Assembly (NCBI GenBank): GCA_028822845.1
Contig: JAPKCS010000002.1
Coordinates: 4,916 to 68,915 of the forward strand
Direction of reading: 5' to 3'
Length of the DNA stretch: 64,000 nt
Source: Candidatus Poseidoniaceae archaeon
GTDB taxonomy: Archaea > Thermoplasmatota > Poseidoniia > Poseidoniales > Poseidoniaceae
A program made the translations under genes and the position numbers. Under the pieces are notes generated by a model. That model was not told the DNA's origin. It did not search any database and was given only the letters and a program-made list of their open reading frames with translations. Shown here in pieces: positions 23,146 through 46,352 of this stretch. Positions within the stretch are counted from its first letter, which is position 1; the number at the start of each line of letters is the position of its first letter.

Positions 23146-23636
23146 CTCGTTGTGCCGGGGTGTGCCCGACTTATCCTCGCCTTTCCTTGAAGGGCTTTAT
23201 ACTCTTTCCCGATTTTAAAGTGATTTCCAATTGAGTTTGTCGTATAATCGACTTGAGTTCCAATTGAAATTCACACAAACTTTCAATTTTAGCCGATGTC
23301 GTATAATTTTCTTTTCAATATGAATTCATTTCTAATTCTAGGGAGCCAGGGCCTGGATGGTACGTTGGAATATTTTGATCTTCGAATGCTGCTCATTTAA
23401 TCTATATTTCAATTGCAGAGGTGGAAATAACTCAGTGTTGACACAAGGATATTTATTTGAGAATGGGGATTCATTCTGGTTGTTTTATCGTAGGATCGAC
23501 TCAGCTTGATTCAAGAAAGTAAAACAACGATTCCAATTAAAAATTACATTTTCCAATTGGAAACCTGAGTAAATATTTAGTTTCTGATGGCGTATAATTC
23601 TTACATTCCTACAGGTGTGAGAGGTGACATCCTCGA
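23146..23636. other. AT-rich non-coding island with repeats; candidate replication origin or centromere-like locus
   Basis: Longest and most AT-rich ORF-free stretch in the window; TTCCAATTG at about 23225 and 23258, TTTCAATTG at about 23407, TTCCAATTA at 23531, perfect palindrome TTTCCAATTGGAAA 23550-23563; CGTATAAT at 23241, 23300, 23591. Confidence 0.55.
23534..23559. repeat. Paired AATT-palindrome site A (in AT-rich island)
   Basis: CAATTA-AAAATTACATTTTC-CAATTG, 20-bp period. Confidence 0.65.
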
Positions 23637-23669
23637 TTGGTTGATGTGTCAGTGGCGGTTGGTTTGTCC

Positions 23670-24533
23670 ATGCCTCATACCCAAACCGTCCATTTGTGCG
23701 GCGAGGCTTCCTCGCTTACATTCGGTTTGATTGAACGCTTGTTGCGCACGGAAGTGCACATCGTGCTGGAAGATGATCTGCATGAACGGGTGTGTGGTGC
23801 TTATGCGACCGATCTTGAGTACAGGCAAGCGCCGGTGTCCTGTTCAAGCGATGTGGCTTTGGCTTCAGGACACCGTGTGTTCCTGCTGGGTCTTGGGCCA
23901 TTGGCTGGGAGTGCTAAGGCTAGATCACGGTTTGATGTCGATGGTTCAGAGCTTATTCTTGTCACACCCCAGGGCGTGGATGTTCCCGCGGCAATGGATT
24001 GGGTCGATGCTCACGTAACGGTCCATGACATGCTGCCAATGCGCACCGATTCGATCTGGATGCCAACTGCCCTTACCAGCTGGGCTGATGGGATGTCTGT
24101 CGGGAACTTTGCACCTCCCGAAGGTGATGAACACCACTGGTGGGTGAGTGAAATCGATGTTGCAGACGCCCTCGTACGCCTGTCGCTCAGCGCCCAACCG
24201 TTCCCTAAGTCATGCAAGATGTCTGGTCGACGGTCGTGGCCAGTTAAGCAAACCCATGAGGAGTTTCAGTTGTTGTATCAACGGACAATGGCAGGGAAGA
24301 CAGGTGTTTTTGGTGTTCAAGAACTCACGGCAGCTCCAACGCCTCATATTGAACTGCAGTCATTGATGGTCACTGACGCGACGCCGATGAGCATCTCAGT
24401 GAACCGTCAAGACCGTCCCGATTTATCGCCTGTTCACGACGCATTGCATGCCGCAGATGGTGATGGCTGGCGTCCCCTTGTACCGGTTCGCACTGCTCTT
24501 ATGCATTGCCTGGTAGGCTTGCTCGGTGCTTGA
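23670..24533 (+). CDS. Hypothetical protein, possibly a degenerate extended-SDR/epimerase-like fold
   Basis: Long ORF filling the gap; WWVSEIDVADALVRL recalls the epimerase 'vhVxDvAxA' motif; no intact GxxGxxG. Confidence 0.55.
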   Translation: MPHTQTVHLCGEASSLTFGLIERLLRTEVHIVLEDDLHERVCGAYATDLEYRQAPVSCSSDVALASGHRVFLLGLGPLAGSAKARSRFDVDGSELILVTPQGVDVPAAMDWVDAHVTVHDMLPMRTDSIWMPTALTSWADGMSVGNFAPPEGDEHHWWVSEIDVADALVRLSLSAQPFPKSCKMSGRRSWPVKQTHEEFQLLYQRTMAGKTGVFGVQELTAAPTPHIELQSLMVTDATPMSISVNRQDRPDLSPVHDALHAADGDGWRPLVPVRTALMHCLVGLLGA

Positions 24534-25982
24534 TCATACAAGCGTTTGAGCGCCGCCGGCAGGTAGGACCGTCAAATCAGTGACGTTGCCGAAAAGGGTC
24601 GGGCCGGACATGAACGTGCCCATGATTCCGGTGTCGCCACTTGGGTTGTGGGAAAGCGAGAGCCACGGTCGTCCATAGGCATCGATTTGCATGTCAATGA
24701 AGTCTCCAAAGCCACCGCATCGCTCGTAACCACAGGTGGGACTTGCGCTGTCGAGTGGATCATTGCCCGCATTGAGCTGAACCGTTGTGATCAATGGTGT
24801 TTCGTTGAAAGCATCGGTGATCACTGAGATGTAACCATGCCAGATGCCATCGCCTTCGGTACCGATGTAGCCGAAAGCGACCCGGCCGGGGTCGCCAGCA
24901 ATGACCACTGGGAAGCCTGTTCCTTCGAGGTGATCAGGGCCGACCATGATCGCTTCAGACCATGTGTTTGCATCGTCAATGGAGTATGAAAAGTAAGGCA
25001 TGTTGTCGTTGCCCATCCACATGGCATAGACGTTGCTTTCAGTGTCGGTGTCCACTTGTGCCTCTTCTGCGTTCCACGTATCGGCTGTTCCCGATGCCTC
25101 GGTAGGCAAGGGGTGTTCAGACCATGTAAGGGCTCCATCCTCTGTTTTGTACATCGAATAACCGGTGCCTTCACAGCCGATTTGTCCGCGATAGAAGTTT
25201 CCATTATCGGCACCGATCAGGTGGGCCGATAACCCTCCACTTTGGCAATCAACGGGTGCTCCTGGCAGTTCAGGTCCCCATGTGAGTCCACCATCTTGGC
25301 TCTGGGAGCACAAGGGTGCGGGGTAGTTGCCATTGATGCAAAACACCCAGAGGGTCTCATGCAAGATGCCGCCATAGGGTGAGGAAGCAATCGTTTGATG
25401 ATCCTGCACCGAGTAAGATGTAGCGACGGATGGGCCGAACCATGAATCGCCTTCATCATCGCTCCATTCGACGGTCATGCCGAGCAGTGCGTGCATATCG
25501 AACTTCATGATGCGGTCCGTCCAAGGGTCGACATAGACGTAAGGATCATTCGAGTTGGCCACAGGAAGGACGGGGCCGTAGACGTTCTGGCAACTGAAAT
25601 CACTCAAACTTGTCATCTCAATCATGTTGCTGCATTGAACGATTGCGGTCGACCCTGAAGGGCCATTGCCGTAACTCGTGAAGTAGATGTTGTCGGTTGA
25701 GGTGATGCCCATGGTTGGCTCGAAGGTTGAAAACCCAGTGGCATAGTATGTCCCTTCGCTGAAGAAAGGCACATTGCTTCCTCCAAGCGCTGAAGTGTTG
25801 TTCATGGCATTGATTCCACCCGGGTAATGGTACCAGGTGCTGTTGCCCAAACTCTGTTCAAAGGAAAAGAATCCATCGTCTTCATTTTCCATGCCCGTTG
25901 AATCCTCTGTGCCAAAGCAGCCGGCAAGAGGCATAAGGGTCATCAGAGCAGCCATCATCAATGCCATTTGTTTGTTATTCAT
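24534..25982 (-). CDS. Lipoprotein with BNR/Asp-box repeats (sialidase-like beta-propeller)
   Basis: Lipobox PLAGC; Asp-boxes WSDDEGDSW, QSQDGGLTW, KTEDGALTW, YSIDDANTW. Confidence 0.8.
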   Translation of the reverse strand: MNNKQMALMMAALMTLMPLAGCFGTEDSTGMENEDDGFFSFEQSLGNSTWYHYPGGINAMNNTSALGGSNVPFFSEGTYYATGFSTFEPTMGITSTDNIYFTSYGNGPSGSTAIVQCSNMIEMTSLSDFSCQNVYGPVLPVANSNDPYVYVDPWTDRIMKFDMHALLGMTVEWSDDEGDSWFGPSVATSYSVQDHQTIASSPYGGILHETLWVFCINGNYPAPLCSQSQDGGLTWGPELPGAPVDCQSGGLSAHLIGADNGNFYRGQIGCEGTGYSMYKTEDGALTWSEHPLPTEASGTADTWNAEEAQVDTDTESNVYAMWMGNDNMPYFSYSIDDANTWSEAIMVGPDHLEGTGFPVVIAGDPGRVAFGYIGTEGDGIWHGYISVITDAFNETPLITTVQLNAGNDPLDSASPTCGYERCGGFGDFIDMQIDAYGRPWLSLSHNPSGDTGIMGTFMSGPTLFGNVTDLTVLPAGGAQTLV

Positions 25983-27019: not shown

Positions 27020-27058
27020 ATGAACCTGCCCACCGAGGCCACACCCGTAGGGTGTGCG

Positions 27059-29503
27059 TCACACCTGCTGCAATTCAAAGATGCGGTCTCTCAAACGAGC
27101 AGCTTCTTCGAAATCGAGGTTCTTGGCCGCTACCTGCATCGCTGACTTGAGTTCCTTCAGCAGATCTTCAATCTGGGCTGGCGAAAGCGACCTTGGGCCA
27201 TCTATTCCAGAACTTTCTAATTGCGAATTCGATTTTCCAATTGAGTTTTCTAGACTTTCGCCAGTCGAGCCATCTTGGCCTGTCCCCGAGCCCCAGGACC
27301 CGGCGCCAAGATTCAGGTTTTGAGCCCAATCGCCATCTTTCCGTCCGCCTTTCTTTGCCACAAGACGCCGACTCCCATCTTTCGAACTCGAGGTCCCTGC
27401 GATCAAATCATCAATGTCAGAATTCATCTTAGGCAGTTCTTTGACGATGCTTCTCGGCGTGATGTTGTTGGCCACATTGTAAGCATGTTGTCGTTCCCGA
27501 CGTTCCAGTGTTTGGGTGATTGCGGCCTTCATTGCCTTCGAGATCCCATCGGCATAGAGGATCACATGGCCATTGAGGTTTCTCGCCGCCCGTCCAATTG
27601 TTTGGAGAAGGCTTCGCTCGTTCCTTAGGAAGCCTTGCCGGTCAGCATCAAAGATAGCAACAAGGCTCACTTCGGGAAGGTCCAATCCTTCCCGGAGCAG
27701 GTTGATGCCAACAATGACATCGATGTGGCCGATTCGCAAAGCGCTGATGATTTCAGTGCGTTCGATGGTATCGATTTCAGAATGGAGGTGATGGGCTTTG
27801 ATCCCCATTCGGTTGAGGTATGCGGCAACTTCCTCGGCGAATTTGATTGTTAAAACGGTGACAAGGGTCCGTTCCCCATCGCTTATGCGACCGTTAATTT
27901 CACTCAACAAATCTGCCATTTGTCCACTTGTCGGCCGCACTTCAATCTCAGGGTCAAGCAATCCAGTTGGCCGGATCTCCATCTTGGCAATGCCTTCGAT
28001 GTGTTGGACCATGTGGTAGAGTGATTCACTGTCTGGGTGCTTCTTTTCTAAATCACGAGGGCCAGCTCCACCGCCGGATTGGGCATGCAGCAGGCCAGAT
28101 GGTAGAGGTTGATTGGTGATCTCGCAGAGGTGGCGCAATTCCCGCTCACCCGGCGTTGCAGACACGTAGACCATTTGCGGAACCAGTTTTTGAAATTCTG
28201 GGATCTTGAGGGGCCGATTATCTGCTGCAGTCGGGAGTCTGAATCCAAAATCAATCAGGCTTTCCTTTCTCGAACGGTCCCCGTAATACATCCCTCCAAC
28301 TTGGGGCAGCGTCACGTGAGATTCATCCATAATGACGAGGAACTTGGTCGGGTCGCCGTGGAACTGTTTGGCGCAAGCAGCAAAGAAGTCCAGCAAACAA
28401 TGGGGCCGTTGCCCTCTCTTTCGACCATCGAAGTGGAGGGAATAATTCTCGATGGATTGGCAGTGGCCAATTTCACGGATCATTTCCAGATCGTAACGGG
28501 TGCGTTGTTCAATTCGATGCCTTTCCAATTCCCGCCCTTCACTGGCAAAATGCGCGACCCTGTCATCGAGTTCATCTTCAATTGAGACCAATGCTGCCTC
28601 AAGACGCTCGGGACTTGTCATGTAGAATTCCCGGGGGTGTATCCAAGCTTCATCAAGCGCATCGAGCACTTCCCATGTGACTGGGTCGCAGACTGACACT
28701 TTGATGATGCCATTGAAGTCGAATTGAATTCGTAGAGGATCGTCCCTGCTTGGCATCCACACATCGACAACCTCGCCTCGTACACGGCAATCGCCCCTGG
28801 TAAGGTCGGTTGTGGTTCGCTTGTATTGGAGGGTGATGAGTTCGCGTAGCAAATCACTTGTCTCGATTTCTTGACCCACATGCACTCGAACATGGTATTC
28901 GAGGAATGTTTCAGGCGGGTTGAGCCCGTAAATGCATGAGACGGAGGACACGATCACGCAATCGGGTCGTGTGACCAGCGATGCTATTGTGGCAAACCGC
29001 TCCTGTTCGATGCGTTCATTGACTGACAGTTCTTTTTCGATGTACATGTCTCGTTTCGACAAGTAGGCCTCAGGCTGATAGTAATCATAGTGGGAGACGT
29101 AATAATCAACAGCATTCTCTGGAAAGTAACCTGCCATTTCGTGGTACAACTGCCTTGCTAAGGTTTTGTTATGGCTGATGATGAGTGTTGGAATGTTGAG
29201 TTTTTGGATCACCTGTGCCATGGCGTAGGTTTTCCCACTGCCAGTAACGCCCAGCAACACACAGCGTTCTTGTCCATTTTCCAATTGAGTAATCAATTTT
29301 TCAATTGCTTTAGGCTGGTCTCCAGAAGGTTCGAATTTCGAATGAAGCACCAAACGCTTTACTTCGGGATTGAGGTGTTCAAGAGCGGCTCCTTCGAGGG
29401 CTCGTGAAATGTCAAAGGGATCACGTTCTTCGAGATCTGATTCATCGATTTCCATGTTCGCAAGATCTTCAAAGGCACCATCATTGTCCCATTCTTTGAC
29501 CAT
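27059..29503 (-). CDS. uvrB: Excinuclease ABC subunit B
   Basis: PSGDQPKAI, LGVTGSGKT, HNKTLARQLY, YYQPEAY, DESH, GINLLREGLDLPEV, QTIGRAARN, C-terminal UVR motif LDFEEAARLRD. Confidence 0.97.
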   Translation of the reverse strand: MVKEWDNDGAFEDLANMEIDESDLEERDPFDISRALEGAALEHLNPEVKRLVLHSKFEPSGDQPKAIEKLITQLENGQERCVLLGVTGSGKTYAMAQVIQKLNIPTLIISHNKTLARQLYHEMAGYFPENAVDYYVSHYDYYQPEAYLSKRDMYIEKELSVNERIEQERFATIASLVTRPDCVIVSSVSCIYGLNPPETFLEYHVRVHVGQEIETSDLLRELITLQYKRTTTDLTRGDCRVRGEVVDVWMPSRDDPLRIQFDFNGIIKVSVCDPVTWEVLDALDEAWIHPREFYMTSPERLEAALVSIEDELDDRVAHFASEGRELERHRIEQRTRYDLEMIREIGHCQSIENYSLHFDGRKRGQRPHCLLDFFAACAKQFHGDPTKFLVIMDESHVTLPQVGGMYYGDRSRKESLIDFGFRLPTAADNRPLKIPEFQKLVPQMVYVSATPGERELRHLCEITNQPLPSGLLHAQSGGGAGPRDLEKKHPDSESLYHMVQHIEGIAKMEIRPTGLLDPEIEVRPTSGQMADLLSEINGRISDGERTLVTVLTIKFAEEVAAYLNRMGIKAHHLHSEIDTIERTEIISALRIGHIDVIVGINLLREGLDLPEVSLVAIFDADRQGFLRNERSLLQTIGRAARNLNGHVILYADGISKAMKAAITQTLERRERQHAYNVANNITPRSIVKELPKMNSDIDDLIAGTSSSKDGSRRLVAKKGGRKDGDWAQNLNLGAGSWGSGTGQDGSTGESLENSIGKSNSQLESSGIDGPRSLSPAQIEDLLKELKSAMQVAAKNLDFEEAARLRDRIFELQQV
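27218..27243. repeat. Paired AATT-palindrome site B (inside uvrB C-terminal linker)
   Basis: TAATTG-CGAATTCGATTTTC-CAATTG, 20-bp period. Confidence 0.6.
29282..29307. repeat. Paired AATT-palindrome site C (inside uvrB 5' part)
   Basis: CAATTG-AGTAATCAATTTTT-CAATTG, 20-bp period. Confidence 0.62.
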
Positions 29504-30333: not shown

Positions 30334-30426
30334 GTGCGGACCAATTCAATTTTTCCAAAATCAATGACGAAGGATTACAACCGGGTCAAAGGAGAGATAC
30401 ATATCTCTAGAATTCGTAATGGAGAC

Positions 30427-31127: not shown

Positions 31128-32036
31128 TCAAACCATGGCTTGAGTTGGTTCCATTAGCATCACTGCCACGAGCAGAACCCACCCAGTCAACATGGATGTA
31201 CGAAACAGTGTGGTTTGGAAATCATTCCACTGGAGGCGACGTTGGATGACGACGATGTTGATGATGGCCATTGCACCTGCTGCAACCAGGAAGAAAGGCT
31301 CTGACATCGGATTGGCTATGGCGAAGCATGCAAACCAGCCAAACGTGAGTTGAATCGATGTGCGAGTCGTGACCTCATCGCCAAACTGTGAGGGAAATGA
31401 ATGGATGCCATTTTCCTTGTCACTTTTAGCGTCCATTCGTGCGTAATTTAGATCGAAGGCTGCAATCCAAAGGGCAACCCCGAGTGCGATGAAAAAGACC
31501 GCCGGATACCACCCTGTGCCCGTAATCGCACTCCATCCAAGGGAGTCTGCGGCGACTGCAATCCAAGCCCCGGCGGGAGCCAGTCCCAGGCAGAGGCCAA
31601 GCCAGAAATGGCACAACCAGGTGTAGCGCTTCAGGTAGGGGTAGACGACAAAAACCACAACGGGGAGCCAGGCCATCATCAATGCAACTTCATTGAGCAT
31701 GCCCGCGCTCACCAGCAGCATACAGAGGAACACACCACAGAGGGTCCATGCGGTCTTCATTGACATCGATCCCGAAGCGAGATGACGCCCGGCTGTCCGG
31801 GGATTCTCGGCGTCTACTTCTCTGTCGATGATGCGGTTTAGACCCATGGCAAGTCCACGGGCACCAACGGCTGCAATGAGGATCCAAGCAAGGTCTGGAG
31901 CAATCCAGTCAAACATGCCGCTTTGTTGGTCTGCGACGAATTCGTTGTGGGCGAGAATGTAACCAATCAGGACAAAGGGCAACGAGAAGAGGGTGTGTTC
32001 TATTTTGATGAAAGAAAGAACCTGTTTGATGTCCAT
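31128..32036 (-). CDS. UbiA-family prenyltransferase (MqnP-like)
   Basis: IKIEHTLFSLPF, NRIIDREVDAENPRT, YPYLKR, FDLNYARMD..SD; start overlaps the ubiD-like stop. Confidence 0.9.
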   Translation of the reverse strand: MDIKQVLSFIKIEHTLFSLPFVLIGYILAHNEFVADQQSGMFDWIAPDLAWILIAAVGARGLAMGLNRIIDREVDAENPRTAGRHLASGSMSMKTAWTLCGVFLCMLLVSAGMLNEVALMMAWLPVVVFVVYPYLKRYTWLCHFWLGLCLGLAPAGAWIAVAADSLGWSAITGTGWYPAVFFIALGVALWIAAFDLNYARMDAKSDKENGIHSFPSQFGDEVTTRTSIQLTFGWFACFAIANPMSEPFFLVAAGAMAIINIVVIQRRLQWNDFQTTLFRTSMLTGWVLLVAVMLMEPTQAMV

Positions 32037-34021
32037 TAAGCCTTGCCTCCAAAGGAAAGATGCGCTGGCCATTGGTACTTAGCAAGTTCCGGATGTTTAG
32101 CGACCTTTTCCAAGGTTTCCTGACTGTGGAGGGTGATTGAGGGCCATCGGCGGACGCCATGTTTCTTTGACGGTATCGGCGTTGTCGCATCCCAACACAG
32201 TCGCGCTCGCTTGTTATCGAACGAGAGGCCACGTCCGACGTCGAAACGGGAGGTCAGCTGCCAGAGCAAGCGTCTGCGGGCTTTCTCACAGTGAAGGTCA
32301 AGATCATTGTTTGTGATGAAAAGCCATCGGAGCGAAGATTCGGAGTCCAATTGCCAAATCGATTTTTTCAATTGGAGAATTGTCTTCTTCCTTTTTGATT
32401 CTGCCCGGTCATTCGAGGTCTCTGACCCTTCCTCAGGTGTTGGCGACCCTTCGATGTCCACGGTGACAACCATGATGCTCCCTCGTAACATTCGTGCGTC
32501 TGCGACCCCCTCCATCGAGAGAACATCTTCGAGTTGATCGAATGAAGGAGGCTCAATTCCTCCTTGTCGCCATGCAGGCGTGAACTGACTGTATGACCCC
32601 TCAAGGGGTGGTTGCGGAGACCGGGGGTCACTCGCAGGCAATGAAGTGGCATCGATCAGCAGTTTGCTGTGGACGTTTTCATACGGACTTGCGGCCTCAA
32701 GGGAATCGGCAACCATCCCGTCGAGAACGATGATATCGGTTGCGATGTCCACTTTTCGATTGAGGGCATCCAACAAAGCATCGAGGTCTTTCGGATCTTG
32801 CTTTTCATCGACTGCTATGATGGTTTTTAGGAACATCATTTGGCCCGCCCCGAGCAAACCAATTGCGGTCTTTCGACCTTGGCGAGGGTAACGCTGTTTT
32901 GAAGCCACAACTGCGAGGTTGTGAAACCCTGTCTCCATTGGGAGATGAACGCTCTTGACGTCACGGTGCTGGAAATTGAGAACCGGCGAGAATTGCTGCC
33001 CAATTGCTTCACCAAGGTGACCGTCCTCCATAGGTGGAAGTCCAACAATGGTCGCAGCGAGCATGGCATCTTTGCGGCACGTGATTGCCGTTACATGCAT
33101 CACTGGGTATTGGCCGGTCAATGAATAAAATCCAAAATGGTCTCCAAATGGGCCTTCGAGCCGAGTTTTTCCTGGAATGCAATAGCCTTCAATGATGATG
33201 TCAGCTTCTGCGGGCACCATGAGGTCCTGAGTCAGTGCTTTGGTGATCGGTAATGATTTCCTGCCGAGGATACCAGCAAATTGGTATTCTGTGAGGTTGT
33301 CTGGTAAAGGGGAAATTGCTGCAAAGATGAGTTCTGGTGGGCCCCCCATGCAAATTGCCACTGGCATTCGTACTTCTTTTCCGGAGGCCTCAGCTGCTGC
33401 TGCGTGTTCGGCACCGTGTTTGTGAATTTGCCAGTGCAAGCCGATTTCCTTCGGACCGAACACTTGTGCCCGGTACATACCGAGGTTGTGTTCTCCATTC
33501 TTTGGGTTCTTTGTGACCACCAATGGAAGGGTGACGAATGGGCCACCATCTTTTGGCCATGTCGTCGGGATTGGGAGGCGGGTCAAATCAGTTGGCAGAC
33601 GAATTCGTTGTGCATTGCCCTTTCGCTTCTTTTTGGGCGGCATGGCCAATGCATCTCGGAGCAAGGGCAACGCTTTCCATGGCTTCCGCATGAAGAGACC
33701 GATGTCTGGTTTCATCATAGCAACCATTCGATCACCAACCTCTGTTGGATGGCTGGCCCCAAGCGCTCGCATTGTCCTGTCTTGACCTCCAAACAGGTTC
33801 ATCGCTAGTGGGATCGAGCTGATGGTCCCGTCAGGCAAGCGTGGTTGTTCGAAGACAACAGCAGGACCGTCATTTTTGACCAACAAGTCTGCGATGGCTC
33901 CCGCTTCGAATTTGACATCAACTGGCCTATCGATGCGCAGCACCTCCCCTCGTTGCTCGAGATGCTCGAGCCACCGCTTGGAAGTTCGCCAGGCCACGAA
34001 GATGCGTAGGGTGGCCTTCAT
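32036..34021 (-). CDS. UbiD-family decarboxylase (menaquinone-pathway MqnL-like), with duplicated C-terminal domain
   Basis: DGGPFVT, NLGMYR, EGPFGDHFGFY, PPMED; KLLIDAT and RLCWDAT repeats; start uncertain. Confidence 0.9.
   Translation of the reverse strand: MKATLRIFVAWRTSKRWLEHLEQRGEVLRIDRPVDVKFEAGAIADLLVKNDGPAVVFEQPRLPDGTISSIPLAMNLFGGQDRTMRALGASHPTEVGDRMVAMMKPDIGLFMRKPWKALPLLRDALAMPPKKKRKGNAQRIRLPTDLTRLPIPTTWPKDGGPFVTLPLVVTKNPKNGEHNLGMYRAQVFGPKEIGLHWQIHKHGAEHAAAAEASGKEVRMPVAICMGGPPELIFAAISPLPDNLTEYQFAGILGRKSLPITKALTQDLMVPAEADIIIEGYCIPGKTRLEGPFGDHFGFYSLTGQYPVMHVTAITCRKDAMLAATIVGLPPMEDGHLGEAIGQQFSPVLNFQHRDVKSVHLPMETGFHNLAVVASKQRYPRQGRKTAIGLLGAGQMMFLKTIIAVDEKQDPKDLDALLDALNRKVDIATDIIVLDGMVADSLEAASPYENVHSKLLIDATSLPASDPRSPQPPLEGSYSQFTPAWRQGGIEPPSFDQLEDVLSMEGVADARMLRGSIMVVTVDIEGSPTPEEGSETSNDRAESKRKKTILQLKKSIWQLDSESSLRWLFITNNDLDLHCEKARRRLLWQLTSRFDVGRGLSFDNKRARLCWDATTPIPSKKHGVRRWPSITLHSQETLEKVAKHPELAKYQWPAHLSFGGKA
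32348..32374. repeat. Paired AATT-palindrome site D (inside ubiD-like gene)
   Basis: CAATTG-CCAAATCGATTTTTT-CAATTG, 21-bp period. Confidence 0.58.
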
Positions 34022-34093
34022 TTGAACCGTCGTATTTCTGCTAAGGATTTTTTTAGAACAGGTCGGGGGCCTGATACATGCATTGATAGGCAC

Positions 34094-34637: not shown

Positions 34638-35876
34638 ATGGGCGAAGCAGCGCAACAGTGCGATGTCTTGGTCATCGGTGCCGGTCCAGGGGGCGGTTCC
34701 GCTGGCTTGCATGCCGCAAGGGCCGGTTTGAAGACAATTATCGTCGAAGCCGATCCAGAAGTCGGAACCCCGGTTCACTGCGGTGAATGCCTCAGCCATT
34801 TGGCTGTGGAAAACCTCGATCTTGAAATTCCAGATCATGTCAAAGCGCTCGATGTTACGGGTATTCGTGTGATCTTTCCAGACGGCACAGAGAAACTGTT
34901 AACTGAAAAGGGCTATGTGTTGGAAAAGCACCTTTTTGAACGTTGGTTGTGCGATGAAGCAGGAAAAGAAGGGGCCACACTTCTCCTTCACCATCGCGTG
35001 ACCTCCATGGAGCGAGTTTTGAATAGCGAAAATCAATTTTCATATTGGAAAATTGATGGGAAAGGAGACGGCTTCCCTATCGAATGCAAAGCGGTGATTG
35101 ATGCATCAGGCGTTTCAGGTGCAGCATCAAAACTTCTTGATATGGGCACAGAGGTCGAAGTTATTGCAGGATTCCAGTATGAGATGTTGGATGTCCCAAA
35201 CGACGGCTACCTTGATTTCTATCTGTGGCCAAAATACTCCCCTCATGGCTATGTTTGGATGATTCCAAAAGCGGGTGGCAGAGCAAACGTAGGCTTGGTC
35301 ACCACCGATAAACGAGGTGCCATCAAGTACCTCAACTCCTTCATCGAAGACACCTACTTGGACGGGAAACCAACCGTCAATCCGCCATGGCGTGCGAATG
35401 GTGTCAAAGTACGACCCTTTGGTGGTACGATTCCGATCTCTGGACCGCGTTCTCGCACAGTTGCAGACGGTGTGATCCTTGTTGGCGACGCAGCTGGATT
35501 TACCTCGCCGCTGTTCGAAGGTGGCTCTCATTTGGCCCTCTGGTCTGGTCGGGAAGCAGCTCAAACAATTGCCAAAGCGCTTTCAGAAGGCAACATGTCA
35601 GAAAAACGCCTCTTAGCCTATCAACGAGCATGGAAGAAACGCTTCCCACCGTACCATAAAATTCTCAAAGGTAAAACTGCACTGTATGATTTGACCGATG
35701 AAGAAATGTCAGTGATGGCGAAATGCCTTCCAGAGGAACTTGGCAACATGACGCCTCTGCAAAAAATCGGTATTGGTCTGAAAATACTGGTTCGCAAACC
35801 GATCCTCCTCACCAAACGAGTGATTCCTGTTCTCCTTTCCTTCGGTTATTCTCGAGCCAAGCATTTCGGCTGGTGA
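34638..35876 (+). CDS. Geranylgeranyl reductase-family flavoprotein
   Basis: DVLVIGAGPGG, PVHCGE, PHGYVWMIPK, LVGDAAGFTSPLFEGG. Confidence 0.9.
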   Translation: MGEAAQQCDVLVIGAGPGGGSAGLHAARAGLKTIIVEADPEVGTPVHCGECLSHLAVENLDLEIPDHVKALDVTGIRVIFPDGTEKLLTEKGYVLEKHLFERWLCDEAGKEGATLLLHHRVTSMERVLNSENQFSYWKIDGKGDGFPIECKAVIDASGVSGAASKLLDMGTEVEVIAGFQYEMLDVPNDGYLDFYLWPKYSPHGYVWMIPKAGGRANVGLVTTDKRGAIKYLNSFIEDTYLDGKPTVNPPWRANGVKVRPFGGTIPISGPRSRTVADGVILVGDAAGFTSPLFEGGSHLALWSGREAAQTIAKALSEGNMSEKRLLAYQRAWKKRFPPYHKILKGKTALYDLTDEEMSVMAKCLPEELGNMTPLQKIGIGLKILVRKPILLTKRVIPVLLSFGYSRAKHFGW

Positions 35877-35895: not shown

Positions 35896-38505
35896 ATGTC
35901 CTTGAAGGATGCCCTTTGGTCTCACAGCATGTGGGGGGTAACATTGTGGCTGGCCATCATTGCGGCTGCCGTGTTGGTTTTTCGCCCTCTTATCCATGAA
36001 CGTTCCAAAGCCTCATCTTTGGTGTTGCATGCTTTGCTCCTGGTTCCGTTCATAGCCCTTGCCAGTCGGTTTTTGGTCAACGACACCAGCATCCAACACG
36101 TCGTTGCTTACGGAGGCGCTGCTCTCCCGCTAAAGTACCGATTTGCAGCCACATGGGCAGCCCGCGAAGGGCCTTTGCTGCTTTGGGTGGCTTGGATGAC
36201 GATCTTGGCCTGGTTGTGGCATCGACCCATGGCCAATGAATCCGAAGCCACTCACACCCTTCGCCTCCGCCTTATTCACGGATTCAGCCTCTTGGTGCTT
36301 CTCAACGCTCAGACCCTTGATCCATTCAAGGCAGCCTCGCCTTACTTCGTGGGTCGCGGCCTGAATGAATTGCTTCAAACCGACCTCATGGTCATACACC
36401 CGCCTCTGATTTTCTTAGCCTATTCTTTTTGTTTGCACGCCAGCGCTATCGCCTTTTCTTCAATGTTCACCGATGCGAATGGAATCAAAGATCGAATGCT
36501 GACGACCGTTCGCCCCGGTTTGTTTGTCGCCACCCTTGGCATTGGCCTTGGAGGGCTGTGGGCTTACCTCATCCTCGATTGGGGTGGCTATTGGGCCTGG
36601 GATCCTGTTGAGACGGGATCGTTCTTGCCATGGCTTGCGCTTGTTCTTCTTGCTCACCTCCGCACTCGACCGGGGAAGACAAGCGATACAGCATGGATTG
36701 GAGGTGGGCTCGCTGCGGGTGGATTGGCGTTATTTGCCACCCTCGTCACACGTGCTGGTGGCGTTTGGGCTTCATCTGTTCACACCTTTGTCGCATCGGA
36801 CGAGGGGACCGCTCCAACGGATGCCTTCTCACGTATGGTGCTGCTGAAAAACGATACCTTTGCCGGCGTTGAAGTGATGTCATACCTGATTCTTTTGCTG
36901 CTCTTTGTCGGTCTCTGGGTCCAGCACCAACGAGCACGGGGTTCAACCGAACCGTCCATGCGAGGGGCTTGGCTGTTTGTACTTCCGTTGGTCGGTGCCA
37001 CAATCGGTATGCTTGGTAGCCTTGGAGATGGGACCTCAATTCTTCCAGGGTCTGATGTTTATGCCTTCCTTCCGAGTGCAGCTTTCCCATTGTTGCTTTT
37101 GCTTCCTCTCACAGTGGATGTATTCACTCGGCAACGTACGCCAATCGAGGTGAAAGGTGGCTGGAGTTATCAGTCGATGATTCAAAAAACGGCTCAGTCG
37201 GCATCCTCACAATCTGTCGTGACCTTGTTCAGCCTCCTGCTGTTCTTTGTCGGCATCACGTTGTTGTCTGAAAATGTATTCTTCGGAGCACTTGCGCTGT
37301 TGTTCTTCACGCCTCTCTTCTTTGCTCCCGATGCCACCAAGGCTTGGCCGTGGGCTGCTGCAGGTGTTATGCTGAGCCTCTCGGGTGCATGGGCTGAGTT
37401 GGTGACTGTGCTCACTGCAGGTGTCACCATGCTCTTGTTCGTAGCCCCATGGCTGTTCGCTTCAGAAACCGAGACGAAATCAAAATCATTTTCGTTGTTC
37501 GAAAGAAAAAACCAGATGCAGATTGCTCTTTGGGCATCCGTTGTTCTGGTTGGCATGTACCTTGTCTTGACCCTCGTGTTGCTTTTGGCCAGCATCGATG
37601 CGGTGAATTTTGACGCCCACGAAGTCTATGGCACACCGTTCATTCTTGCCTTTGCTTCTGCAATGGTGGTTTACACCGGACGCAAGGGCGATTCGGTACG
37701 GACCGCATGGCTCGTTCTTGGCACCCTCGTCGTCTCCTTTGTTCTCGCCATCTGGCAACCTGAAGCGTTTGGCATGGATGCAGATACAACCGTGTCCTCT
37801 CTGATTGTGCGTGGGACCTTGGCTTGGTTGATGTTGCCAATGCTGTTCGTAATCGTGCTTCCTTTGATTCGAGAGGTCCATGGCCAGCGAACTCGGAAAT
37901 CAAAGCAGCCTCTATGGCGTCGAATTCCCTTTGGGGCCCACGTGGTCCACATCGGCCTTGTGTTGCTGTTGATCGGGCACGTCTACACCACCGTTCTCGT
38001 CGACCGAGGGGATGCAAGTCATCGCATCACCATGATTCGCGATGAAGTGGTTATTGACGGTAATTACGGCTATGAATTCAATGGTCTTCGCTTCCAGTCT
38101 GATGATCTTGAGGTTGGCGACGGCTATGTGGGGGTTCAAATCACCGTGTATGAGCTTGAAAATGGTGCAATTGGGGACAGAATCGGTGAAGTGGAACCCG
38201 GTATGATTCGGTTCGACACAACGGCCACCGCTCGCTCTGAAGTCGATACCTTGACGCGTTGGAGCGGCGACATTGTGTTCATTTTTGATGGAAGCCAAGC
38301 CGCTGGTCTGATGACTCAAGCGGTTGAAGGCGGCGAAGCTTCGGTTCAGACCGTGCGCGTGACCGTCTACGACCTGCCTGCTTCGCATTCGGTGTGGCTC
38401 GGCTGGACGACGATGCTCATCGGTATGGCGATTGTTGTGGCGGGGGATGTCAGCAAAAACAAGAGCCTGCGCCAATATTCTACTGAATCTAATGCCGAAG
38501 AGTAA
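35896..38505 (+). CDS. ccmF: Cytochrome c biogenesis heme lyase CcmF
   Basis: WAAREGPLLLW, GLNELLQ, IHPP, WAY...WGGYWAWDPVE, SVHTF, HIG. Confidence 0.9.
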   Translation: MSLKDALWSHSMWGVTLWLAIIAAAVLVFRPLIHERSKASSLVLHALLLVPFIALASRFLVNDTSIQHVVAYGGAALPLKYRFAATWAAREGPLLLWVAWMTILAWLWHRPMANESEATHTLRLRLIHGFSLLVLLNAQTLDPFKAASPYFVGRGLNELLQTDLMVIHPPLIFLAYSFCLHASAIAFSSMFTDANGIKDRMLTTVRPGLFVATLGIGLGGLWAYLILDWGGYWAWDPVETGSFLPWLALVLLAHLRTRPGKTSDTAWIGGGLAAGGLALFATLVTRAGGVWASSVHTFVASDEGTAPTDAFSRMVLLKNDTFAGVEVMSYLILLLLFVGLWVQHQRARGSTEPSMRGAWLFVLPLVGATIGMLGSLGDGTSILPGSDVYAFLPSAAFPLLLLLPLTVDVFTRQRTPIEVKGGWSYQSMIQKTAQSASSQSVVTLFSLLLFFVGITLLSENVFFGALALLFFTPLFFAPDATKAWPWAAAGVMLSLSGAWAELVTVLTAGVTMLLFVAPWLFASETETKSKSFSLFERKNQMQIALWASVVLVGMYLVLTLVLLLASIDAVNFDAHEVYGTPFILAFASAMVVYTGRKGDSVRTAWLVLGTLVVSFVLAIWQPEAFGMDADTTVSSLIVRGTLAWLMLPMLFVIVLPLIREVHGQRTRKSKQPLWRRIPFGAHVVHIGLVLLLIGHVYTTVLVDRGDASHRITMIRDEVVIDGNYGYEFNGLRFQSDDLEVGDGYVGVQITVYELENGAIGDRIGEVEPGMIRFDTTATARSEVDTLTRWSGDIVFIFDGSQAAGLMTQAVEGGEASVQTVRVTVYDLPASHSVWLGWTTMLIGMAIVVAGDVSKNKSLRQYSTESNAEE

Positions 38506-42592: not shown

Positions 42593-42599
42593 TGAACGC

Positions 42600-42625
42600 T
42601 AATTGAAAAATCAAAAAAGCAATTG
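42600..42625. repeat. Paired AATT-palindrome site E (intergenic, inside carboxylase operon)
   Basis: TAATTG-AAAAATCAAAAAAG-CAATTG, 20-bp period; fills most of the 44-bp spacer. Confidence 0.62.
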
Positions 42626-42636
42626 GAGAATTTACG

Positions 42637-43494
42637 ATGATAACCATGGAAAACCCTCCCGCAACTGAACTGGTGACCATGACCATTGATGGGTCCCGCG
42701 CCAACCTTTTGCTCAACCGAGAGGGGAAATTCAACGCCCTCAATGTTCAACTCATCACCGAGTTGTGCGACCTTTTGGATTGGACGGCAGCCCGGAGTTC
42801 CGGAGCGCTTGATTCGCTGAACGATGTCAACGGCACCCCCTACCTCCGCACGCTTGTTGTCTCCGGGGCGGGCCGACATTTCTGTGCAGGTGCGGACATC
42901 AACATGATGCGCGATGCTGGTGCGAACACTCCTGAAGAAAACCGAGCGGACTCAAAACGGTTGGATCGTCTGTTCAACAGCCTCTGGTCCCACCCGTGTT
43001 TCACCGTTGGCGCCATCCAAGGCGTTGCCCTGGGTGGTGGCGCTGGATTGGTGGCTTGTATGGACCATGTCATTGCAACGAAAAACGTCAAACTTGCCCT
43101 TTCGGAGGGGAAACTCGGTATTCTTCCTGCTGTGATTGGCCCCTATGTTTACCGCCGTCTCGGTTCCGCCTGCTTCCGTCGTCTTGCCATGCAAGCGAGC
43201 AAGATTGGTTCCGAAGAAGCTCTCCGAACCGGGTTCATCGAACACGTCGTAGAATCCGTCGACGATCTCGAAGGTGCGGTCCAAACCCTTCTGGATGAAG
43301 TGCTCACCACAGGGCCTAGCGCCGTGACCTTGGCCAAAGAATTGACCCTCAATTTTGATCGCTGGAGCAGTTCAGATGAAGCTCTGCGAGACTGGACCCT
43401 TGATTTTACCAGCAAGATGCGTGGTTCCAATGAAGGGCAAGAAGGCTTGTCTTCTTTCCTTGAGAAGCGTTCAGCCAACTGGAAACCCGAATGA
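42637..43494 (+). CDS. Enoyl-CoA hydratase (methylglutaconyl-CoA hydratase, LiuC-like)
   Basis: LNR..KFNALN, FCAGADI, ALGGGAGL, SEGKLGILPAVI, EGQEGLSSFLEKR; gene context. Confidence 0.88.
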   Translation: MITMENPPATELVTMTIDGSRANLLLNREGKFNALNVQLITELCDLLDWTAARSSGALDSLNDVNGTPYLRTLVVSGAGRHFCAGADINMMRDAGANTPEENRADSKRLDRLFNSLWSHPCFTVGAIQGVALGGGAGLVACMDHVIATKNVKLALSEGKLGILPAVIGPYVYRRLGSACFRRLAMQASKIGSEEALRTGFIEHVVESVDDLEGAVQTLLDEVLTTGPSAVTLAKELTLNFDRWSSSDEALRDWTLDFTSKMRGSNEGQEGLSSFLEKRSANWKPE

Positions 43495-43506
43495 GGAGTT
43501 GATTCA

Positions 43507-45012
43507 ATGGTCAGCAAGGTCTTGGTTGCAAACCGAGGGGAAATCGCATGTCGAATTCTCCGAGCATGCAACGAGGCAGGGCTCGCCAGCGTTGCCATTT
43601 ATGCAGCGAATGATGCTGATTCGATGTTCCTTGAACTCGCCGACCAAGCGGTCCTGCTCGAAGGTGAAACGATTGGGGAGACCTACCTCGACCAACAGCA
43701 AATCTTAGCCATCGCCAAGGCCACAGGGGCAGATGCAATTCATCCAGGGTTCGGTTTCCTTTCAGAACGAGCAGACTTCGCTCGAGCTGTTGGTGAAGCC
43801 GGCCTGCAATGGGTCGGACCAAGCCCCGAAGCAATTGAGCAAATGGGCGACAAGATGACCGCTCGCATCACGATGAGGGCTGCAGGTGTCCCCGTGATCC
43901 CTGGAGAAGAAATTGAACAGGAAGAAGAAGCAGAAGCGCTGGCCGCAATCGAGTCTGCTTCCCATCGTGTTGGCTACCCCTTGCTCCTCAAGGCCTCTTC
44001 GGGTGGCGGGGGTAAAGGCATGCGTGCCGTACATTCACCTGAGGATTTGATTGAATCCGCCAAAGGTGCGCGTCGTGAAGCAATCGCAGCATTTGGCGAT
44101 GGACGCGTTTACATCGAACGTCTGCTCACAGGATCAAAGCATGTAGAAATTCAAGTTCTTGCCGACCGTCATGGTCGCACCGTCCATCTTGGCGAGCGTG
44201 AATGCAGTGTGCAACGGCGCCATCAGAAGGTGTTCGAAGAAGCGCCCTGCGCCACGATGACTCCAGACCTTCGTGAGGCGATGGGTCAAGCAGCTGTTGC
44301 GGCAGCAGAAGCCGTCAATTACGAAGGTGCGGGTACAGTGGAGTTTTTGCTTGCATCCACGGGCGAGTTTTTCTTTTTGGAAATGAACACACGAATCCAA
44401 GTTGAACACCCTGTGACCGAACTCGTTACCGGCGTTGATTTGGTCAGAGAGCAACTTCGAATCGCTGCTGGTGAACCCATGTCGTGTGGCCCGCTGATGA
44501 TGCGTGGTCATGCGATTGAAGTCCGTCTCTATGCCGAAGACCCGGAAAATAATTTCCTACCTGCCATTGGTCCTTTAGCGGTGTTCCGCCCTCCTGAAGG
44601 TCCAGGTGTTCGTCTTGACACCGGCGTGCGTGAGGGTGATTCAGTCACCCCAAATTACGATCCAATGTTGGCGAAATTGATTGTCTGGGCGCCTTCAAGA
44701 GCAGAAGCGCTCCAACGCATGCGTCGAGCATTGGATGAGTTTGTTGTTCTTGGAACAACCACAAACATCCGATTCCTACGTGAACTCTGTGATGAACCAG
44801 AAGTTGTTACTGGTCAAACCGACACCACCACAATCGACCGTTTGTGGCCCGATGGGTGGCATCCATCCGTGCCTCGTTCAATTGAAGATGCAGCCTTGAT
44901 GAGCGCAGCCGTTGGTGAAAGCGCTGGCCTCCATCGAACAGTATCTGTCGTGGCTGGAAGTTCCTCTGGTCCAGTGAGTCCCTTTGCCACCCTTCACCGG
45001 AGGTTTCCGTGA
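43507..45012 (+). CDS. Biotin carboxylase subunit of acyl-CoA carboxylase
   Basis: VLVANRGEIA, HPGFGFLSE, GGGGKGMR, ECSVQRRHQK, EMNTRIQVEHPVTE, YDPMLAK. Confidence 0.95.
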   Translation: MVSKVLVANRGEIACRILRACNEAGLASVAIYAANDADSMFLELADQAVLLEGETIGETYLDQQQILAIAKATGADAIHPGFGFLSERADFARAVGEAGLQWVGPSPEAIEQMGDKMTARITMRAAGVPVIPGEEIEQEEEAEALAAIESASHRVGYPLLLKASSGGGGKGMRAVHSPEDLIESAKGARREAIAAFGDGRVYIERLLTGSKHVEIQVLADRHGRTVHLGERECSVQRRHQKVFEEAPCATMTPDLREAMGQAAVAAAEAVNYEGAGTVEFLLASTGEFFFLEMNTRIQVEHPVTELVTGVDLVREQLRIAAGEPMSCGPLMMRGHAIEVRLYAEDPENNFLPAIGPLAVFRPPEGPGVRLDTGVREGDSVTPNYDPMLAKLIVWAPSRAEALQRMRRALDEFVVLGTTTNIRFLRELCDEPEVVTGQTDTTTIDRLWPDGWHPSVPRSIEDAALMSAAVGESAGLHRTVSVVAGSSSGPVSPFATLHRRFP

Positions 45013-45476
45013 TGCATCACCAATTCAGAAGTCCGGAGGGACCAATTGAGGTGACCGTGGCGAAGCAAGGAGAATCTTGGTACCTTGGTTCGCTTGAAGC
45101 AACGCCCATGCCAGACGGGCGTCTTCGTATCCTCAATGATGACGGGACGGTCATGTTTGCCCACCTCGTCAAAGTTGGCGATGTGTGGTGGGTTCACGTC
45201 GACGGTCATACGTTCAAGTTGGAACGGGTTGAACCAGGAGCTTCTGATACCGATGATGGCGGGGGCTTGACTGCTCCAATGCCTGGAAAGGTTTTGCAAG
45301 TGCTTGTGGATGTTGGACAAACGGTGTCATCTGGGACCACGCTCATGGTTCTTGAAGCGATGAAGATGGAACACCGAATCGTCGCAGCCAGCGATGGAAC
45401 CGTCACTGCAGTTCACTTCGGTGCAGGTGATCAAGTCGAACAAGGCGTTGCCCTATTGGCGCTCGAAGAATCATGA
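45012..45476 (+). CDS. Biotin carboxyl carrier protein with N-terminal BT-like domain
   Basis: APMPGKV...LEAMKMEH; start overlaps the biotin carboxylase stop (GTGATG). Confidence 0.9.
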   Translation: MHHQFRSPEGPIEVTVAKQGESWYLGSLEATPMPDGRLRILNDDGTVMFAHLVKVGDVWWVHVDGHTFKLERVEPGASDTDDGGGLTAPMPGKVLQVLVDVGQTVSSGTTLMVLEAMKMEHRIVAASDGTVTAVHFGAGDQVEQGVALLALEES

Positions 45477-46352
45477 GTTGGCTGTTCGCCAATCGCCTGA
45501 GGCAATGACGACAGCGTCGTCCATGGTGCCGCTGTAAATGTAGGTCCACGCCCAAACCTTTTCGCCATCAACTTCGATTTCCATTAGTGTGCGTTGGAAC
45601 AATGAATCAGCGGAATCAAATCCATAGAAGCCTTCGACGCGGTCAAGCGATTGAAGGCCGAGAAATACATTGCTCAGTTCGTGCACTTCACCCAACACCC
45701 GTCCTTTGGGTTGTGTTAGCATGCCAGGGTAAGCACCCAGGTGATACAGTGTACCGGGAGCATCTGCCTTCCGATGGCCTTTGGTGGTGTGTTGAACTAA
45801 TGTTTCGTAACGAACTTCATCTTGCATCAATGTGCCATAGACAAAGAGATGCTTTACGGGATAAGAATAGTCTAAGTTTTCAATTGCGTTTTTTAAATCT
45901 TCAATTGGAAGTTTTCTTTTATTCAGTCCGCCCTCAATAAGGCTGACATAATACGAAGTGGGGGGCACATACTCGCCTTGTTTGGCAGGTTGAAGTCGAT
46001 AGGTGATGGCTTCAATTGATGACCCATCAGGCAAAAGGACGTTCACAGATGTTCTTCGGTAGGTGTTCGGATGGCCTTCCTTACGATCCATGTTGGCAAT
46101 TGCCTTCTCAGTCAAAGAAAACAGAACACCAGGGACCGCATGACCGCATCCAGCAGGGACCACATCTGCAGCCCCGCCTTCCCTTCGGAACGACCGATAG
46201 TGAAATTTCAATCGATGATCGGGCAACCAGCACGGTCCAAGTTCGACAACGCCGGACGGATCAACGCCTTTTTCCTCACACCAGATGTTCCAATCATCGA
46301 TGTCAAGGTTGGAGCCGTATCCAAAATACAGGGTCAAGTTATCTTCCGCCAT
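45471..46352 (-). CDS. Tandem gamma-glutamylcyclotransferase (GGCT/AIG2-like) domain protein
   Basis: YFGYGSNL...MDRKEG and LFVYGTLM...LDRVEG...SGDW. Confidence 0.85.
   Translation of the reverse strand: MAEDNLTLYFGYGSNLDIDDWNIWCEEKGVDPSGVVELGPCWLPDHRLKFHYRSFRREGGAADVVPAGCGHAVPGVLFSLTEKAIANMDRKEGHPNTYRRTSVNVLLPDGSSIEAITYRLQPAKQGEYVPPTSYYVSLIEGGLNKRKLPIEDLKNAIENLDYSYPVKHLFVYGTLMQDEVRYETLVQHTTKGHRKADAPGTLYHLGAYPGMLTQPKGRVLGEVHELSNVFLGLQSLDRVEGFYGFDSADSLFQRTLMEIEVDGEKVWAWTYIYSGTMDDAVVIASGDWRTANS
45881..45907. repeat. Paired AATT-palindrome site F (in GGCT interdomain region)
   Basis: CAATTG-CGTTTTTTAAATCTT-CAATTG, 21-bp period. Confidence 0.55.

Follow-up and report, generated by a model that had tools for sequence, protein, structure and literature searches.

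The genome of a Candidatus Poseidoniaceae archaeon contains a small set of bipartite DNA elements, each formed by two CAATTG-type hexamers about two helical turns apart. Six of them lie in the 64,000-nucleotide (nt) stretch analyzed here (GenBank assembly GCA_028822845.1, contig JAPKCS010000002.1, positions 4,916 to 68,915, or G000:C1:4916-68915 in our numbering), which we refer to as the window; the assembly comprises 1.92 Mb in 57 contigs and is 92% complete. About ten places, mostly in unrelated genes, keep this 26- to 27-bp element across many Poseidoniales species, and the element is under DNA-level selection. We hold with great confidence that it is a real, conserved DNA element of the protein-binding type. 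As to its function, we lean toward a centromere-like role in which an 80-amino-acid (aa) protein encoded beside a ParA ATPase would be the binding partner.

An earlier note on this DNA had listed six sites, and each was found where the note placed it, with the sequence it gave. Site A (23534..23559, CAATTA-N14-CAATTG) is in an intergenic island. Sites B (27218..27243, TAATTG-N14-CAATTG) and C (29282..29307, CAATTG-N14-CAATTG) are both within uvrB, site B in the variable linker ahead of the UVR domain (aa 754-762) and site C near the other end of the protein (aa 66-74, AIEKLITQL). Site D (32348..32374, CAATTG-N15-CAATTG) falls in the C-terminal extension of a UbiD-family gene (aa 574-582), site E (42600..42625, TAATTG-N14-CAATTG) occupies a 44-bp gap between the carboxyl-transferase and enoyl-CoA-hydratase genes of one operon and ends 11 bp ahead of the ATG at 42637, and site F (45881..45907, CAATTG-N15-CAATTG) is within a GGACT/AIG2-like gene (aa 150-159). 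Further sites are site G (C1:114146, outside the window), inside a 292-aa open reading frame (ORF), and site H, in the promoter region between divergent genes. Sites A, E, and H are thus intergenic; sites B, C, D, F, and G, along with a degenerate copy termed D' that is described below, are intragenic, some of them 150 to 300 codons from any gene start.

The spacing of the hexamers is restricted. Among the 60 YAATTR hexamers in the window, start-to-start distances between 1 and 80 bp were 20 bp (four pairs), 21 bp (two pairs), 33 bp (one pair), and 56 bp (one pair), with no others. The whole genome contains ten YAATTR pairs at these two main distances, seven at 20 bp and three at 21 bp, and seven of the ten are on contig C1 (six in the window), two on C9, and one on C30. 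An AT-rich spacer consensus is common to nine of the ten pairs. Only C9:8477, with a GC-rich spacer, departs from it, and this pair is probably a chance occurrence. Pairs of CAATTG at 33 bp and 58 bp elsewhere in the same genome were also considered and set aside, as their mixed-GC spacers are unrelated and look like chance. At site G, a third CAATTG box 27 bp upstream makes up a conserved three-box unit (C1:114119-114171), and box distances of 27 bp and 47 bp each recur four times in four foreign regions.

Alignment of 25 N14 and 8 N15 copies from this genome and four relatives gave the consensus (t)TTY-CAATTG-rrAAWTYRAWTTTy-CAATTG-Raa. Within the N14 spacer, position 6 is T in 25/25 copies and position 9 is A in 24/25, with positions 7 and 8 being Y and R, so that a TYRA step occupies the center, on the dyad axis. 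In the copy G045:C3:244060, all 26/26 positions are self-complementary, making it a perfect 26-bp palindrome; among the copies, between 12 and 26 of the 26 positions are self-complementary. The element is therefore a symmetric AT-rich core flanked by two self-palindromic hexamers that are two helical turns apart.

We trained a position weight matrix (PWM) solely on 19 sites from four other genomes and then ran it on the genome under study. This PWM recovered six N14 sites with scores of 29.9 to 44.3 bits, including site A (38.1 bits), site E (29.9 bits), C1:114146, and C9:12180. The C30 site scored 22.8 bits, the genome contained no other matches of at least 12 bits, and five triplet-shuffled genomes gave 0 to 1 matches. 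An N15 variant of the PWM scored sites D and F at about 33 bits. The site set is discrete, with scores of 23 to 44 bits and nothing between 12 and 22, so that a genome-wide scan as proposed in the earlier note indeed returned few, distinct, and clustered sites.

The same note had listed three weaker copies, which fared differently. Those at 30342 and, inside the gene for the 80-aa protein, at 15411 scored -6.6 and -6.4 bits, about the 99th percentile of random neighborhoods, and are unsupported. The third, site D' (35021..35047, GAATAG-N15-ATATTG, in a geranylgeranyl-reductase-like gene), scored 17.0 bits and has better-scoring orthologues in relatives (24.2 bits in G016, 29.6 in G032, and 29.2 in G045, with 11.1 in G009), which identifies it as a degenerate or decaying real site.

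Counts alone gave a mixed answer. In 60 shuffles of synonymous codons, made within 1372 crudely called genes, C1 gave a mean of 3.17 pairs and a maximum of 5, compared with 7 observed, with three C1 sites held fixed because the gene caller had put them outside genes. Genome-wide, 10 pairs were observed compared with 6.17 +/- 1.43 and a maximum of 12. Over the whole genome, the excess over a codon-preserving shuffle is therefore modest. CAATTG as such is not avoided in the window (48 observed, 34 expected). Because the raw genome count is not decisive by itself, the case for the element rests on its localization, its shared spacer, and its conservation.

The motif pattern is present in 18/18 sampled genomes of the same genus, with 1 to 17 matches per strand compared with 0 to 4 for a reversed control pattern. 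The matches are at orthologous positions; for example, the distance from site B to site C is exactly 2064 bp in G004, G009, G016, and G032. For uvrB, 30 loci with 69 to 78% nucleotide identity were collected, one was dropped for N characters, and the remaining 29 ORFs were codon-aligned, giving 724 columns and 658 ten-codon windows for an entropy scan, with box counts made over 28 orthologues and as many species. Both boxes of site C are CAATTG in 28/28 orthologues across 10 distinct spacers. Both boxes of site B are CAATTG in 20/28, with a one-base variant in the remainder, and here the 28 genomes show 21 different spacers, with flanks that vary and are rich in indels. Of the 658 windows, the 15 with the lowest codon entropy all overlap site C or site B, with site C the lowest at 0.13 bits and site B the second lowest at 0.23 bits, compared with a gene mean of 1.38 bits.

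A parallel result was obtained for the UbiD-family gene, for which 27 ORFs of 30 loci were kept, 26 of these (26 species) covering site D, and 513 windows were scanned. The 12 lowest windows listed of these 513 lie over site D, at 0.50 bits compared with a mean of 1.43 bits, and the first and second boxes are CAATTG in 24/26 and 23/26 orthologues, respectively. Motif sites are thus the most frozen segments of both genes. Because all three intragenic sites that were scanned (3/3) are the most synonymously constrained part of their gene, peptide repeats and chance are ruled out as their source. The freezing of synonymous positions at sites B, C, and D bears out the view that the sites are a DNA-level element of the protein-binding type. 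The peptides encoded are SIGKSNSQLE at site B, AIEKLITQLE at site C, QLKKSIWQL at site D, PIEDLKNAIE at site F, and SIEDSKIQLE at site G, which has the phase of site B. The claim that sites B and C repeat out of codon frame was incorrect, as both are at codon offset 1, as is site F, and site D alone is at offset 0. The same element is nevertheless found in two codon phases as well as in intergenic DNA.

At site A, orthologues have the 20-bp spacing in G009 and G045, and the boxes are 31 bp apart in G016 and G032; since 31 bp replaces 20 bp, the boxes are kept on one face of the DNA. Site E has orthologues in G016, G032, and G009 (32.2 bits in the last). Site F is less stable: of its 16 orthologous loci, 7 retain CAATTG at both boxes, and the other 9 have CTATTG or CAATAG at one of them.

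The sites are also concentrated in one part of the chromosome. In this genome the main orc1/cdc6 gene is on C9 at 38130 (426 bits) and a second is on C49, with none in the window, and a parA gene followed by a small downstream gene is 8 kb from site A, as it is in G003, G004, and G009. In near-complete relatives, the main orc1 is 142 kb (G009), 158 kb (G016), 150 kb (G032), and about 139 kb (G045) from the Walker motif of parA, an interval of about 7% of the genome. This interval contains 6/11, 6/9, 7/12, and 5/16 of all unique exact-pattern sites in these four genomes, respectively, and G045 has one further site 30 kb beyond orc1. Relaxed scanning adds orthologues of sites E, F, and H and of D', bringing the number to about 10 sites per interval. 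Sites outside the interval mostly have GC-mixed spacers; one of them is a conserved N15 site, C30:67482 in this genome. Our C1:114146 and C9:12180 correspond to the two sites nearest orc1 in the relatives, the latter 26 kb from orc1 in this genome, and in G009, G016, and G032 the sites lie 25 to 150 kb to one side of the main orc1/cdc6. The sites are therefore clustered, with 7/10 pairs of this genome on C1 and the sites of relatives concentrated between the parA operon and the main orc1/cdc6.

Orc1/Cdc6 was considered as the binding protein and rejected as a first choice, because the region upstream of orc1 contains no CAATTG pair. No repeated origin recognition boxes were found at orc1, a difference from archaeal origins with such boxes, and a single match resembling one upstream of orc1 in this genome is not conserved. 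As a separate observation, a noncoding element of about 45 nt containing GACATGCTTATGAGGGGGACTCGGACT (C9:~37990-38040) is located about 90 nt before the start of the main orc1/cdc6. This element is near-identical in this genome, G009, G016, G032, and G045, and the remaining upstream region is not; this element could serve as a leader or as an Orc-binding box that has a G-string.

The gene at the parA end of this interval (15674-16690, reverse strand) encodes a Soj/ParA-type ATPase with a deviant Walker A motif, 319 to 338 aa in length, with a conserved start MNPYKM at 16633. It matches the Pfam families AAA_31 (2.9e-53) and CbiA (8.5e-20) and, in the PDB, the ParA chain 8ray (1e-53), Thermus Soj (2.5e-42), and Sulfolobus SegA (7dut; 1.8e-16). 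Alignments of PDB Soj/ParA chains with this ParA are split into two stretches, which implies an insertion of about 60 residues after Walker A (query ~75-138) that is absent from solved Soj structures. A search for ParB_N (PF02195) gave 0 matches in the genome. The gene for the 80-aa protein, the candidate partner for the sites, follows parA after a 109-bp gap (15322-15564, reverse strand; the gene runs to 15564, not to 15549 as the earlier note had it). A third gene of 84 aa (15063-15317, reverse strand) comes directly after it in the same operon and has no Pfam or NCBIfam match. Homologues of the 84-aa gene follow the small gene in G020, G021, G027, and G019 of other genera, and its product may be a third component of the operon. 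Parts of all three genes are covered by RNA-library contigs from four metatranscriptome runs of three studies, matched at 95% identity or more; such contigs are not proof of transcription.

The 80-aa protein belongs to a family restricted to Poseidoniales and a few distant archaeal relatives. A collection of 5.8 billion proteins contains 268 relatives, the named ones being from Poseidoniales and a few annotated as "predicted CopG family," and a profile of the family found 49 cluster representatives among 1.84 billion proteins. Its first 23 residues are near-invariant, and MTSVSVS[YF]ExRRxLN is invariant in homologues from other genera that are 40 to 48% identical to the window copy, an invariance that, at the level of sequence, matches that of the boxes. 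In our reading, T-S-V-S-V-S-Y, in which polar and hydrophobic residues alternate, and the helix, G-x-x-S, and second helix that come after it resemble a ribbon-helix-helix (RHH) pattern. Distant relatives found by the profile carry VAPB_antitox (1.4e-5), RHH_1 (0.003), Arc, and DUF7557 matches, all below threshold. Alignment of the family with those relatives by hhalign gave a probability of 99.4%, which is partly circular because the same profile had found them. Neighbors of the protein in the Atlas include RHH_1 and VAPB_antitox clusters, and the best Foldseek matches of its model in the PDB are mostly NikR, ParD, and PrpA together with two MatP chains (E 2-9). PDB sequence and profile searches returned chance-level matches alone, to designed repeat proteins and others; a single-protein scan for distant relatives gave one weak locus with no ParA nearby, an uninformative result; and a complex prediction of ParA with the 80-aa protein scored 0.00, which we counted neither for nor against an interaction. 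An all-helical monomer model, described below, goes against an RHH fold, which we regard as likely but putative. The gene that the earlier note called the RHH gene lies directly after a ParA partition ATPase gene, a position the note did not mention, and its fold is represented by these sub-threshold leads.

We also compared the occurrence of parA, the small gene, and the motif among 31 genomes of the order. ParA is found in all 10 sampled genera and 28/31 genomes, with parA at a contig end in G028. The small gene is found in 21/31 genomes, comprising 15/18 of the same genus, both g2 genomes, G020, G022, and G027; the three same-genus genomes in which it was not found are 69 to 83% complete. 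Consensus-type sites are located 8 to 33 kb from the operon in G020, G022, and G027. With the window copy as query, the small gene was not found in G023, G024, G025, G026, G029, or G030, and other genes follow parA in the five of these small-gene-negative genomes in which parA was located. Five of the six (G023, G024, G026, G029, and G030) contain 0 to 1 pattern matches, and G025 (GC 0.38 in the stretch read) has scattered matches with unrelated or random spacers. In G025, parA is followed by a 261-aa ORF that has, by eye, a DNA-methyltransferase-like SPPY motif (G025:C5:5700-8100, L083). This distribution fits a motif that goes with the small protein rather than with ParA alone.

Considering these findings, the reading we favor, by a modest preference, is that the sites are segS- or parS-like centromere sites bound by the ParA-linked 80-aa protein, in analogy to Sulfolobus SegAB. 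The earlier proposal of binding sites for a chromosome-organizing protein holds in that the sites are a DNA-level element, discrete, clustered, and beside the parA operon; the identity of the binder as the 80-aa protein, its RHH fold, its contact with ParA, and a role in segregation are what we infer beyond this. In such a system, each palindromic CAATTG box would take one dimer of the 80-aa protein, with recognition occurring through an N-terminal beta-ribbon that includes the invariant T-S-V-S-V-S-Y. Two boxes two helical turns apart would present both dimers on one face of the DNA, and the AT-rich spacer with its flexible central pyrimidine-purine step may let them act as a unit. About 10 such complexes over about 140 kb, from the parA operon to orc1/cdc6, would give nucleoid-bound ParA-ATP a handle on this region, with segregation, local chromosome compaction, or both as the outcome. 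A fuller form of this model, which we put forward only tentatively, is a hybrid partition system in which a ParB-free, bacterial-type Soj works with a lineage-specific RHH-type adaptor of 80 aa, whose paired dimers on about 10 bipartite CAATTG sites fixed in housekeeping genes would define a centromere domain of about 140 kb beside orc1/cdc6.

Several observations weigh against a centromere role for the sites and the 80-aa protein. The PWM scan of C1 found no site inside or directly upstream of the parA operon, the nearest being 8 kb away. The 80-aa protein has no Pfam, NCBIfam, or PDB sequence match, Foldseek gave no PDB match with E below 1, and its AlphaFold2 (AF2) monomer model is all-helical with no strand (mean predicted local distance difference test [pLDDT] score of 69.5). 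With only about 6 residues ahead of its putative strand, the protein lacks the flexible, ATPase-activating N-terminal tail seen in SegB and ParG. One box is degraded at site F in 9/16 species. Although the genome is about 90% coding, 3 to 4 of about 9 sites are intergenic, and such sites, some abutting promoter-like elements, also fit a transcription factor. The co-occurrence of small gene and motif may reflect one or two evolutionary events, and the genomes without the small gene are mostly GC-rich, with three stretches at GC 0.56 to 0.62, in which chance pairs are rare. Finally, GC skew is weak, has no clear turning point, and gives no origin position.

One alternative is that the sites are bound by another protein, such as a nucleoid-associated protein or global regulator encoded elsewhere, and that their nearness to the parA operon reflects neighborhood coincidence and shared ancestry. 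We consider this unlikely, yet it is the alternative to be taken most seriously, given that the small gene and the motif occur together in only a few independent lineages, that the operon's own control region lacks a site, and that binding by the 80-aa protein is itself presumed. Such a coincidence does not readily explain why, in all genomes checked, three other genera among them, the cluster starts 8 kb from the operon, or why the putative DNA-reading strand of the 80-aa protein is invariant wherever the boxes are invariant, and palindromic 6-bp boxes suit RHH-type dimers. A second alternative keeps the 80-aa protein as binder and makes it a transcriptional regulator that has no segregation role, the sites being operators, roadblocks, or internal promoters of a local regulon. 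Many RHH proteins act as repressors, and the intergenic positions of sites A, E, and H, with site E close to a start codon and site H between divergent genes, would suit such a function, as would the island boxes 5 to 14 bp before GTCGTATAAT-like elements and the isoprenoid or lipid genes among several hosts and neighbors (UbiD, UbiA, geranylgeranyl-reductase-like, carboxylase, and enoyl-CoA-hydratase genes). The intragenic sites far from gene starts, the functional mixture of hosts (uvrB, the GGACT-like gene, and a gene beside deoxyhypusine synthase), and an operon partner that is a ParA ATPase in a genome with no ParB make a purely regulatory role improbable. Regulation and partition are moreover not exclusive, as ParG, omega, and SegB do both.

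Three further explanations are much less probable. SeqA requires GATC pairs on one DNA face, and CAATTG boxes could likewise be methylation sites whose same-face pairs are read near the origin by a SeqA-like sensor of hemimethylation. The spacings of 20 to 21 bp, and of 31 to 33 bp at the island, do keep the boxes on one face, and CAATTG is a type II-like palindrome that is not avoided in the window. Our analysis identified no methylase or reader, however, and methylation by itself leaves the conserved spacer with its central TYRA and A/T tracts unexplained, so we give this idea very little credence. Little more than a nominal chance is left for an RNA-level element in which the palindrome forms a hairpin in transcripts. 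Perfect or near-perfect copies such as that in G045 could form one, but self-complementarity falls as low as 12 of 26 positions in others, E-type sites have A-runs on either side of the center with no compensating changes, no stem-preserving covariation was seen across orthologues, and no Rfam family matched. Double-stranded recognition is indicated instead, because the invariant parts are the two boxes, each of which is self-palindromic. Chance, or a by-product of amphipathic-helix peptides (QL..QL, IE..IE) combined with an AT-rich codon preference, is the least credible explanation of all. It could draw on the modest genome-wide excess and on the shared codon phase of sites B, C, F, and G with their similar peptides xI[EG]K..xQL. 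It is contradicted by codon choice that, in two genes, is frozen precisely at the sites and nowhere else, by site D being in the other phase and sites A, E, and H being noncoding, by the location of site B in a variable, indel-rich linker, and by positions that are conserved across families.

The closest known counterpart is the SegAB system of Sulfolobus. There, the gene for the ParA-type SegA is followed by that for SegB, an RHH protein whose N-terminal tail stimulates SegA (PMC12284271, PMC8682754). The SegB motif, TCTAGA-S-TCTAGA, is described as a 13-bp palindrome with 39 to 49 sites in S. solfataricus and 32 to 35 in S. acidocaldarius, more than 80% of them intragenic and the strongest cluster near segAB (PMC12284271). 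The Poseidoniales system is similar in that a gene for a ParA-type ATPase is followed by a small gene for a site-specific (here candidate) binder, in that the motif consists of two copies of a palindromic hexamer, and in that discrete sites (tens or fewer) are mostly in unrelated genes and clustered near the operon, with no ParB. It differs in that the 80-aa protein has no SegB homology or similarity to any PDB chain and carries its putative RHH at the extreme N-terminus with no long flexible tail, and in that ParA matches bacterial Soj (2.5e-42 to 1e-53) better than it does SegA (1.8e-16). In addition, the boxes are 20 to 21 bp apart rather than 7 and have a different sequence, the sites number about 10 rather than 32 to 49, none is upstream of the operon as segS is, and the two genes do not overlap but are separated by a gap of 109 bp.

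Other partition and chromosome-organizing systems share fewer features. ParABS systems comprise Soj/ParA, the CTPase ParB/Spo0J with a helix-turn-helix (HTH) clamp, and a 16-bp palindromic parS. A Soj-like ParA, a few palindromic sites that are often intragenic and cluster to one side of the gene for the replication initiator, and positions conserved between species are common to both, but no ParB_N domain was found in the genome, the candidate binder is 80 aa, and the site is bipartite and 26 to 27 bp long; lacking ParB, the system is not ParABS. Type Ib plasmid systems (ParF-ParG of TP228 and delta-omega of pSM19035) use small RHH proteins and short repeated boxes (PMC8682754). As in these, a Walker-type ParA is paired here with a small, probably dimeric, RHH-type candidate. 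The present locus falls outside the type Ib plasmid systems, as it lies on the chromosome, its sites are dispersed over about 140 kb and not arrayed upstream of the operon, and its ParA is large, with an insertion; an N-terminal activating tail is also not evident. MatP of enterobacteria, an RHH and coiled-coil protein, binds a 13-bp palindrome, matS, at 23 sites in the Ter macrodomain. Here too a small putative RHH protein and dispersed palindromic sites would define one chromosomal domain, and two MatP-matS chains are among the Foldseek matches (E 5.7-7.9, not significant), but MatP functions without ParA, and the domain described here adjoins orc1/cdc6, not the terminus. In the literature on Marine Group II that we searched, including PMC6461757, we found no account of ParA, segregation sites, or a CAATTG motif, the search not extending to the supplementary lists of SegB orthologues of PMC12284271.

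The intergenic island that contains site A (23146..23636) is conserved over 490 bp and has additional single boxes, CAATTG at 23228, 23261, and 23410 and CAATTT at 23285. It also contains three GTCGTATAAT-like elements (23236-23253, 23295-23308, and 23586-23599), each downstream of a CAATTG-type box and, for the first two, by 5 to 14 bp. These elements look like promoter (TATA/BRE-like) elements in sequence, and the layout of the island, GTCGTATAAT-like elements included, is kept in G009, G016, G032, and G045. In the four runs, no RNA-library contig covers 23346-24308, which is uninformative on transcription. Flanking the island is a gene for a 199-aa protein (22546-23145, reverse strand) with a weak PRC-barrel match that is below the cut-off (E 0.0056) and no NCBIfam match. 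RNA-library contigs from two studies stop at 23136, the second in-frame ATG of this gene, which hints weakly at a leaderless start in that position. PRC-barrel proteins take part in archaeal cell division, and the multi-box island beside this gene may couple segregation to division-gene expression.

Two of the host genes have features of their own. In the UbiD-family gene (32036-34093, reverse strand; Pfam), the host of site D, the UbiD_C domain ends at aa 482 of 685, and the ORF continues for about 200 aa as an unannotated extension that contains site D. The product of uvrB (27059-29503, reverse strand; Pfam), the host of sites B and C, has a conserved N-terminal extension (…WDDDGAFE…) before the usual family start GDQP..AI..L, as do most orthologues. 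An Rfam search of the window detected two tRNAs and nothing else.

To our knowledge, archaeal chromosome segregation is known experimentally almost only from Sulfolobales. Poseidoniales (Marine Group II) are abundant and uncultured, and because they are not culturable, comparative genomics is the sole route into their segregation. If the proposed system is correct, it would represent, in another archaeal phylum, a second and unrelated family of ParA adaptor that uses a centromere code of its own. The sites are a clear case of a regulatory or structural DNA code that overrides synonymous codon choice in conserved genes, and they could mark the origin-proximal region when Marine Group II genomes are assembled and oriented.

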